Source: Escherichia coli
Lineage (GTDB): Bacteria; Pseudomonadota; Gammaproteobacteria; Enterobacterales; Enterobacteriaceae
Assembly: GCF_041886205.1 (NCBI RefSeq)
Contig: NZ_CP169029.1
Strand: one strand, 5' to 3'
Length of the DNA stretch: 64,000 bases
The notes beneath the pieces are model-generated. The model saw only the letters and a list, made by a program, of their open reading frames with translations. It made no database searches and was not told the DNA's origin. Positions 34,148-35,428 of this stretch are shown in pieces (position 1 is the stretch's first letter; the number at the start of each line of letters is the position of its first letter). The position numbers and the translations under genes were made by a program.

Positions 34148-35428
34148 CTATAGCTGTTTATTCCAGAGATGCTTGAAAATATCTAATGTTGAGACAACAT
34201 TGGCAGGCGACATTCGGTTTAATGAGGGTAGAAAGGGATGAGCCTCCAGGAAGTTGATAAAACGAGTCGCGCTTGCCAACGTCGAATTCCGCATTTCATT
34301 TGCTTTCTTGTTTCCTGTAAGGTTACAAACAGCCATTGAATAATCACGGGCGGAAAATGCACGCCAGACATTATTTCTCACGCCACCACTCAAAAATAAC
34401 CGCGGCGGCGTATCATAATGAGTCGTTTTCTCGCCGCGCTCTTTCACAAAGGAAATATGGCACCGGCCTTGATGAATATGCTGCAAATTAGCCATCAGAC
34501 AACCGCCTAATATAAAGCACTCGTTATCAAGGTAGTGTTGAATATTTATAGAATATCCTTCAGTCAGTACTCTAACCAGTTCAAAATGGCGATACGCCGG
34601 AAGAACCGGTTTCACCAGCATCCCCGGATCGTTTTGATGTAATATCGCCCGACCATAATCAATATCAAATAAGGTATCACGCCGCATAGTAAGTAACTCC
34701 TTGCGTTGTACGTGATGCGCCAGTGTACCTGGAGACAAACGCTCTTCATAACTTGATGCATACTGATAATGCGACTCTACCGCTGATGGAGAATAATTTG
34801 TTGAAATAGCGACAACTCTACCGCTTTGTTCTTCTGTGGTAACAAGACTATAAAGATAGTTATTACTACCGTTAAACTTTACGCGAAAAGCACGGGTAGC
34901 TAGAGAAATATCAGAAGCAGAAGAGTACTGGCGACTTTCTTTATAGTTTACTTCCCGGGCTAGTTTTATCAATTCACGGTTAAGCCCTGTGCTATTAAGA
35001 AGTAATAATTTACGGATATCAGCAAGTGAAGCACCTTGCTCAATCATCAATGCTAACTGTGTTCTTCGCGGCGTTGTATTTACATGATCCAGAGTGATAA
35101 ATGTTCTGGAACAATGATGACAATACATTCTCCTCTGCCCTTGAGCTGAATAACCATACTTTTTCAGAGATGTGCTTCCGCAAGCTGAACATTGTGGAAC
35201 CAACCCTCGCCATGAATGATTAACACGATTACGATAAATATTAAGAGATCGTTCAGATATCACAGGAAAAAAGTAACCGCATTCCCGACATAAAATATTT
35301 TTGCCTTGTGCAATATAATCCTGGCTATTCAACAATCCCAAGTTTTTGCATCCTGGTGTTTTGCAACAATCAACATTTACGTTGGTAAACATATTCACTC
35401 CCTGCGAATATCCGGATATTATCGTCAT
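34148..35428 (-). CDS. Cys-rich hypothetical protein with tandem transposase-like zinc ribbons and a putative HTH; possible regulator or accessory factor of the adjacent sulfatase
   Basis: 426 aa, no signal peptide; CxxC pairs at CRECG / CSACGS / CHHCSRTF, resembling IS1 InsA and IS1595-type transposase zinc ribbons, followed by a helix-turn-helix-like segment (QLALMIEQGASLADIRKLL); no radical-SAM CxxxCxxC motif. Confidence 0.6.
   Translation of the reverse strand: MTIISGYSQGVNMFTNVNVDCCKTPGCKNLGLLNSQDYIAQGKNILCRECGYFFPVISERSLNIYRNRVNHSWRGLVPQCSACGSTSLKKYGYSAQGQRRMYCHHCSRTFITLDHVNTTPRRTQLALMIEQGASLADIRKLLLLNSTGLNRELIKLAREVNYKESRQYSSASDISLATRAFRVKFNGSNNYLYSLVTTEEQSGRVVAISTNYSPSAVESHYQYASSYEERLSPGTLAHHVQRKELLTMRRDTLFDIDYGRAILHQNDPGMLVKPVLPAYRHFELVRVLTEGYSINIQHYLDNECFILGGCLMANLQHIHQGRCHISFVKERGEKTTHYDTPPRLFLSGGVRNNVWRAFSARDYSMAVCNLTGNKKANEMRNSTLASATRFINFLEAHPFLPSLNRMSPANVVSTLDIFKHLWNKQL

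Follow-up and report, generated by a model that had tools for sequence, protein, structure and literature searches.

The segment analysed here is a 64,000-nucleotide stretch of Escherichia coli DNA (NCBI RefSeq assembly GCF_041886205.1, contig NZ_CP169029.1; hereafter the window), which is chromosomal and reverse-complemented relative to K-12. On its minus strand, to which the coordinates of the genes and elements of this locus refer unless stated otherwise, lies an open reading frame (ORF) encoding a protein that descends from a complete DDE transposase and has been domesticated by the host, with two four-cysteine zinc ribbons, an InsA-like helix-turn-helix (HTH) and a transposase-type, RNase H-like core. 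The genes on this strand run in the order dnaJ (40013–41173), mokC/hokC with sokC (Rfam), a channel gene, a sulfatase gene, the ORF, nhaA and nhaR. The channel gene (37035–37796) is the first of the operon and encodes an outer-membrane (OM) protein of the Tsx/OmpK family (PF03502 in orthologues; OmpK in the PGAP annotation; NF008574 with an E value of 1.8e-35). The sulfatase gene (35522–37015) encodes 497 residues that match the NCBIfam arylsulfatase and choline-sulfatase models (E values of 5e-55 and 3e-49) and that PGAP names 'sulfatase family protein'; its signal peptide and its SSPSR..TG motif place it among the periplasmic, Ser-type sulfatases.

The original prediction, which was made from the sequence alone, placed the gene at 34148–35428. 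An ORF of this extent is indeed real and contains all of the cysteine motifs that had been quoted for it (CRECG, CSACGS and CHHCSRTF), but 36 bases at its start are surplus. Translation most likely begins at the ATG at 35392 rather than at 35428, because the homologue N termini all read MF..(I/V)NV, because PGAP likewise starts here, at the second ATG, and because the ribosome-binding site GGGAG is found 6 nt 5′ of it. The coding sequence is accordingly most likely 34148–35392, i.e., 414 residues plus the stop codon. Database labels for the gene are 'cytoplasmic protein', 'IS1 family transposase' and 'IS1/IS1595 family N-terminal zinc-binding domain-containing protein'.

Zinc ribbons, helix-turn-helix and core of the encoded protein

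The architecture of the protein was examined in an alignment of 43 homologues sharing 18–85% identity, and residue numbers refer throughout to the 414-residue protein. Eight cysteines, each either invariant or conserved in at least 90% of the aligned sequences, form two sets of four (C10, C15, C35 and C38, then C68, C71, C91 and C94); C35, C38, C68, C91 and C94 are the invariant ones, and C10, C15 and C71 fall into the second class. An AlphaFold2 model with a predicted local distance difference test score (pLDDT) of 91.6 places all eight on two β-hairpin ribbons. Ribbon 1 (residues 10–38; 35279–35365) is delimited by the conservation of its cysteines and by model β strands at 26–29, 32–35 and 41–43, and ribbon 2 (residues 68–94; 35111–35191), which is of the InsA/IS1595 type, by cysteine conservation together with two profile matches. 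The first of these is to NF050000, the NCBIfam model of the IS1/IS1595 zinc domain, which scores 30.7 bits against a curated cut-off of 28. The second is an hhalign alignment of residues 64–143 with residues 4–86 of IS1 InsA (probability 96.6%, E value 6e-10), which extends into the HTH region that follows the ribbons (helices 108–118, 123–130 and 134–153; 34934–35071), so that ribbon 2 and these helices cover essentially the whole of InsA. Judged by these profiles, ribbon 2 and the following HTH are homologous to IS1 InsA.

The original prediction had described tandem ribbons of the transposase type followed by an HTH-like segment. The HTH segment was confirmed, as was the nature of the second ribbon, but the description does not extend to both ribbons: by profile only ribbon 2 is transposase-type, and ribbon 1 is specific to the present family. 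The Pfam model Zn_ribbon_IS1595 (PF12760) gave a non-significant E value of 0.42 for the protein itself and reached 0.001 or better in none of the 43 family members. Furthermore, Pfam returned nothing significant for the protein or its 43 relatives except InsA/IS1595 zinc ribbons, and DDE_Tnp_IS1595 matched none of these sequences. A reading as a phage-defence protein was dropped, PADLOC giving no match and PHROGs only a zinc-ribbon 'transposase'.

The remaining ~300 residues had been predicted to hold no recognisable feature. This stands as far as sequence comparison goes, by which no catalytic domain is detectable, but the predicted structure shows a DDE-transposase core. A model built from 24 close homologues was mediocre (pLDDT 71), while the one built from the 43 diverse homologues, described above, was confident, with a predicted template modelling score of 0.92. 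In this model the C-terminal 260 residues (161–414; 34151–34912) adopt the RNase H-like core fold of DDE transposases, and the closest solved structures are those of ISCth4 (6XG8) and Tn5 (1MM8). The core elements follow the HTH helices (108–153) in the order β-β-β-α-β-α-β (β1 161–173, β2 178–187, β3 193–198, α 224–237, β4 258–260, α 263–278 and β5 283–288), and after them come a four-strand insertion (311–357) and a C-terminal helical bundle. No conserved catalytic triad, made up of an Asp on β1, a second Asp after β4 and a Glu on a subsequent helix, accompanies the fold. Among the 43 sequences, β1 has no conserved acidic residue and a conserved T166 instead, the stretch after β4 has none either, with K261 variable and P262 conserved, and E291 is the sole universally acidic column of the core. 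Because no acidic column is found on β1 or after β4, the two catalytic Asp positions of the modelled fold appear unoccupied, and the two residues have probably been lost. R238, H269 and W343 are invariant in the ~260-residue core.

The protein was also compared with known insertion sequences (IS). Like the present protein, IS1 InsA (91 residues), a sequence-specific DNA binder and transcriptional repressor, consists of a Cys4 ribbon and then an HTH; the present protein differs in its extra N-terminal ribbon and in a 260-residue core that is unrelated in sequence to InsB, and its gene, unlike IS1, has no frameshift, lacks IS ends and is immobile. When ten family members were compared with the IS1 and IS1249 transposase models, these matched only the N-terminal 40–90 residues and scored 18–38 bits against cut-offs of 100 and 300; for the present protein, the IS1 transposase model NF033558 gave 28.8 bits (cut-off 100) over profile positions 1–88 of 199 only. 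Against the family profile, hhalign found no similarity in IS1 InsB (probability 0.3%) or in the IS186 (IS4-family) transposase of the window, and the origin of the core is not assignable to any IS family by sequence. A profile search of Protein Data Bank sequences returned only Cys-rich C2H2 zinc-finger arrays, a compositional effect of the CxxC pairs, and nothing for the C-terminal domain. With ISCth4 (IS256/Mutator) and Tn5 (IS4), the core shares 6–10% identity and no profile similarity, the Asp residues are not conserved, and the present gene has no ends and is immobile.

Immobility and purifying selection

Of 5426 complete E. coli genomes, 1280 carry the gene, each of them in exactly one copy, which is always chromosomal and never on a plasmid. 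The locus between dnaJ and nhaA is the same in Escherichia, Salmonella, Klebsiella, Citrobacter, Kosakonia and Phytobacter, and terminal inverted repeats, looked for on both sides of the gene, were not found. Were the gene part of an active IS element that has gone unrecognised, its transposase would be expected to have the full architecture described above, from zinc ribbon and HTH to RNase H-like core. Such an element is nevertheless hard to reconcile with a median and a maximum of one copy per genome, with a fixed position across genera, with the absence of inverted repeats and of a conserved DDE triad, and with scores far under the IS1 and IS1249 cut-offs. Furthermore, the gene sits inside an operon, starting 25–33 nt past the stop codon of an anaerobic sulfatase-maturing enzyme (anSME) gene where the latter is present. 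This explanation is effectively refuted, and we regard it as scarcely conceivable. The scenario that the original prediction had set against itself, in which the protein matches a DDE transposase over its full length, keeps the triad and is encoded between inverted repeats, thus does not describe the gene, and its view that the protein derives from a transposase without being an active IS is upheld by the single copy, the missing repeats, the purely N-terminal IS matches, the fixed locus and the lack of conserved acidic residues on β1 and after β4.

A functionless, decaying IS remnant would be the opposite extreme. The N terminus is homologous to an IS-encoded protein, databases often apply the IS1 transposase name to the gene and some Salmonella carry truncated copies, all of which would be in keeping with decay. 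Between the alleles of the window and of strain Nissle, which represent the two E. coli allele groups, the ratio of non-synonymous to synonymous substitution rates (dN/dS) of the ORF is 0.10, however, at a dS of 0.90 and a dN of 0.09, and this ratio indicates purifying selection and hence neither an active IS nor a decaying remnant. A full length of about 415 residues is retained from Escherichia to Atlantibacter at 32–85% identity, the close family has 67 invariant columns, and synteny is fixed. Decay is likewise effectively refuted and hardly credible to us; the gene is a single-copy, immobile and syntenic transposase descendant kept by selection.

Together with its promoter and the channel and sulfatase genes, the ORF makes up a three-gene island of 4.05 kb (34137–38184) that is absent from E. 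coli K-12, the K-12 flanks matching window positions 38411–38185 and 34136–33886 with about 122 unrelated nt between them. Complete E. coli genomes have the island in 24% of cases, and its alleles fall into two groups that have diverged strongly from each other. Between these groups dS amounts to 0.59–0.90 in the island as against 0.09 in dnaJ, and it is also elevated, at 0.30, in the adjacent nhaA, which suggests either an ancient polymorphism or inter-species recombination.

Two further features of the surrounding DNA may be recorded here. An IS186/IS4-family transposase gene (38632–39750, plus strand) lies between dnaJ and mokC, as in K-12, and is missing from this site in the closest island-carrying genome, O121 RM8352. 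Beyond nhaR, at about 24000–32000, there is a fimbrial chaperone/usher/adhesin cluster of low GC content (35–40%; ORFs at 27609–31727) with an intact usher of 816 residues, the counterpart of which in O121 RM8352 is a pseudogene beside a frameshifted espX1.

Neighbours of the family and the sulfatase maturase

Further context comes from distant members of the family. An exhaustive HMMER search recovered full-length relatives at 21–33% identity, and those that were traced to an organism stem from Atlantibacter, Proteus, Vibrio and Photobacterium. We examined eight relatives that are not linked to a sulfatase (18–33% identity; the full-length ones are part of the 43-sequence alignment), and all eight are neighbours of genes for the scavenging of nucleosides or nucleotides. 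In five cases the two are transcribed divergently, which is the classic arrangement of a regulator: one from a deoB-deoD-nupG-like operon, one from a tal-add-deoC-deoA-deoB-deoD operon, one from nupC-deoD, and one each in Proteus and in a metagenomic sequence from a 5′-nucleotidase gene. The relative in Vibrio lies directly downstream of a 5′-nucleotidase gene and that in Photobacterium downstream of a purine nucleoside phosphorylase gene, both on the same strand as their neighbour. The last, a paralogue in uropathogenic E. coli (UPEC), belongs to an island after metL that also holds a Tsx channel and three 5′-nucleotidases (UPEC132, NZ_CP040456.1, 4964821–4976020; gene at positions 8090–9214 of this locus, minus strand); it has 374 residues and matches the family with an hhalign E value of 1e-58. 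The other products of these loci are exported enzymes and channels or cytoplasmic catabolic enzymes, and the family member alone has DNA-binding domains.

The sulfatase operon itself also starts with a Tsx-family channel. In Salmonella and Citrobacter, where the Tsx-like gene is inverted, the sulfatase cluster is flanked by a gene for an UshA-like 5′-nucleotidase and by two genes that encode periplasmic arylsulfate sulfotransferases. This arrangement hints that the module handles a sulfated, possibly nucleoside-like substrate.

Ser-type sulfatases, as known from AtsA and AtsB, need a radical-SAM anSME. The order channel, sulfatase, anSME (a radical-SAM/SPASM protein) and ORF is found in 17 of the 26 loci examined, namely in Salmonella, Klebsiella quasipneumoniae, Citrobacter, Kosakonia, Phytobacter, Buttiauxella, Franconibacter and Atlantibacter-type genomes. 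The anSME gene is absent from E. coli, E. albertii, E. whittamii, Phytobacter massiliensis, Klebsiella spallanzanii, Klebsiella oxytoca and Kluyvera intermedia. The ORF and the sulfatase gene occur together in all 26 loci, with the ORF as the last gene of this Enterobacteriaceae operon, and it is kept where anSME is missing. Because this pairing holds in every one of these loci and anSME is present in 17 of the loci, the ORF is a conserved fourth gene rather than a stand-in for the maturase. The original prediction had put the gene at the sulfatase-maturase position, which is accurate for Escherichia and the four other lineages but not for the 17 loci in which the ORF follows a real anSME gene; its adjacency to the sulfatase gene in E. 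coli results from the absence of anSME.

The anSME gene has probably disappeared from Escherichia and the four other lineages by separate losses, as suggested by their spacers, which all differ. The E. coli spacer is a fusion of the sulfatase-to-anSME spacer of Salmonella, which includes a hairpin and a T-run, with the last ~17 nt of the anSME-to-ORF spacer, the anSME coding sequence between the two being missing, and spacer comparison thereby delimits the junction left by the loss, with the T-run, the match to the anSME stop codon and following spacer of other genera, and the ribosome-binding site of the ORF (35393–35443). No anSME remnant was detected by tblastn in the window or in the other anSME-less loci. 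A sigma-70-like sequence, TTGACG-17-GATATT, lies on this junction just upstream of the ORF (35407–35435), and a separate promoter for the ORF might have arisen with the deletion, although this is a consensus match only and such matches are no commoner here than in shuffled sequence. The terminator-like hairpin between the sulfatase stop codon and the ORF (35444–35474), which precedes the T-run, is conserved in 12 lineages and present with or without a following anSME gene, and eight of its base pairs still form although both partners have changed. It might act as an attenuator within the operon or mark where a small RNA derived from the 3′ untranslated region ends. A small GGGC/GCCC stem is located just upstream of it, at about 35478–35490.

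These observations bear on the suggestion that the protein is a sulfatase-specific maturation, folding or export factor replacing the lost anSME in E. coli, a version of which, a novel factor outside the radical-SAM family, was offered by the original prediction. The constant company of the sulfatase in this subfamily, unbroken wherever anSME is absent, would suit such a role, as would the cytoplasmic location of the protein, which it shares with anSME. Moreover, the sulfatase has a dN/dS of 0.03 between E. coli alleles that lack anSME, so some maturation route must exist. In most genera, however, the canonical enzyme is encoded between the sulfatase gene and the ORF, and the eight relatives beside deo, nup or 5′-nucleotidase genes have no sulfatase nearby. 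In E. coli the gene does resemble AtsB/anSME genes in directly following that of a Ser-type sulfatase, but the fold is that of a transposase with an HTH and is unrelated to anSME: in agreement with the original prediction, Pfam and NCBIfam detected no radical-SAM (PF04055) or SPASM match, and there is no redox domain or domain like that of the formylglycine-generating enzyme. E. coli also has other anSME homologues, such as aslB and, in UTI89, ydeM, and the sulfatase is presumably matured by these in trans. A maturation factor is in our judgement a very doubtful explanation.

Promoter elements and the case for a dedicated regulator

Three blocks are kept in the otherwise diverged intergenic DNA upstream of the channel gene. 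Box 0 (37985–37998), recognised by a conserved TCAAT block in the alignment, reads AATCAAnnnnTKA, a putative match to the consensus of the integration host factor (IHF), WATCAANNNNTTR. Box 1 (37954–37974) is a 21-bp element, AGACACACTTTTTGAAACACG, located about 48 bp upstream of box 2 (37908–37923), which in E. coli appears in the intergenic alignment as the CRP-like sequence TGCGA-N6-TCACG. From the centre of box 2 it is about 28 nt to the first base of a downstream −10-like TATACT (37882–37887), roughly the distance expected, we infer, of a class II CRP promoter, and in Buttiauxella and Franconibacter its place is taken by a perfect TGTGA-N6-TCACA. In Salmonella, Citrobacter and Klebsiella spallanzanii the channel gene is inverted and each of the divergent promoters has its own box 1 and box 2.

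A position weight matrix (PWM) of box 1 gave its top match, at 16–27 bits, in every promoter-containing locus, held-out loci included, while other sites reached at most 16 bits, and the element is unique within the window. As the top matches fall at these promoters, box 1 is locus-specific and the best candidate for an operator. An origin of box 1 as a relic of the IS1 terminal repeats was rejected, its alignment scores lying within those of shuffled controls, and the element thus resembles the IS1 inverted repeats no more than chance would have it. A special status of box 2 as a palindrome, TGTGATA-N4-TATCACA, which is perfect in five loci, was likewise abandoned when more genera showed the ordinary CRP-type TGTGA-N6-TCACA. 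Box 2 is therefore an ordinary CRP-type site and provides no evidence for the protein studied here. Intergenic DNA beside the distant relatives is likewise dominated by CRP-like sites, and no motif common and specific to the family was found in it.

We propose that the protein is the dedicated transcription factor of the operon, acting at box 1 together with CRP. The proposal draws on the zinc ribbons and HTH, on the position of the gene in or next to its putative target operons, on the divergent relatives and on the conserved, locus-specific box. The zinc ribbon and HTH module would bind DNA as IS1 InsA binds the IS1 ends, its target would be box 1 in the channel/sulfatase promoter, and the catalytically dead core would serve oligomerisation, effector sensing or both. 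The original prediction had already raised the idea of a domesticated transposase module that regulates the sulfatase operon; descent from a transposase is borne out, and the regulatory role is the best-supported reading, although our confidence in it is evenly divided between acceptance and doubt.

Several points weigh against such a role. The UPEC paralogue is devoid of the HTH segment, and not every member of the family therefore has an HTH. The catalytic positions, on which the notion of a dead core depends, were mapped via predicted strands and column conservation and not by residue-level superposition, and a conserved core of ~260 residues exceeds the needs of a simple regulator and may have another activity. 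Near the distant relatives, no intergenic site scores with the PWM of box 1, and the element might be recognised by a different factor, given that CRP-like and IHF-like boxes are present in the same promoter. When the literature was searched by locus tag and by concept, no study on the gene or the family came to light.

An alternative is another role in nucleic-acid handling or signalling, be it that of an RNA-binding post-transcriptional regulator, of a site-specific nuclease or recombinase with a non-DDE site, or of a nucleoside sensor acting via partners. Such roles must be weighed against the InsA-like ribbon and HTH, which form a module for binding double-stranded DNA, against the divergent placement beside catabolic operons and against the lack of a conserved pair of metal-binding acidic residues. 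We consider them unlikely, if still deserving of serious attention.

If the protein is indeed a dedicated regulator, it may be the founding member of a hitherto unrecognised family of bacterial transcription factors derived from complete DDE transposases that control periplasmic scavenging modules in Enterobacterales and Vibrionales, these modules comprising a Tsx-type channel with a sulfatase or 5′-nucleotidases as well as the deo/nup operons of nucleoside catabolism. This wider reading, modules included, we put forward tentatively, leaning slightly towards doubt. If it is true, the sulfatase linked to the Tsx channel might have a sulfated substrate that resembles a nucleoside.

The domestication of whole transposases into host regulators is well documented in eukaryotes. 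Most pertinent are the plant proteins FHY3 and FAR1, transcription factors that arose from whole Mutator-like transposases and whose role is proven experimentally. Analogous to what is proposed here, they have kept an N-terminal zinc-finger domain and an inactivated core, are immobile and under purifying selection, and are used as regulators. They belong to another kingdom, however, and are of independent origin, homology is not claimed, and the transcription-factor role of the present protein is an inferred one. We know of no description of a whole transposase that was exapted into an operon-specific regulator in bacteria, where genes of this kind routinely carry the wrong label, 'IS1 family transposase' or 'cytoplasmic protein'.

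Members of the family occur in important pathogens and in commensals, among them B2 E. coli (Nissle and UPEC included), Salmonella, Klebsiella, Citrobacter, Proteus and Vibrio. As the family is tightly linked to nutrient-scavenging loci, assigning its function would annotate a so far unassigned family that is seen in at least a dozen genera. The protein could add a regulator of nucleoside and sulfate-ester scavenging beside CytR, DeoR and CRP. The main value of the finding lies in the family-wide link to the scavenging of nucleosides and sulfate esters and in a possible bacterial case of the exaptation of a whole transposase into a regulator.

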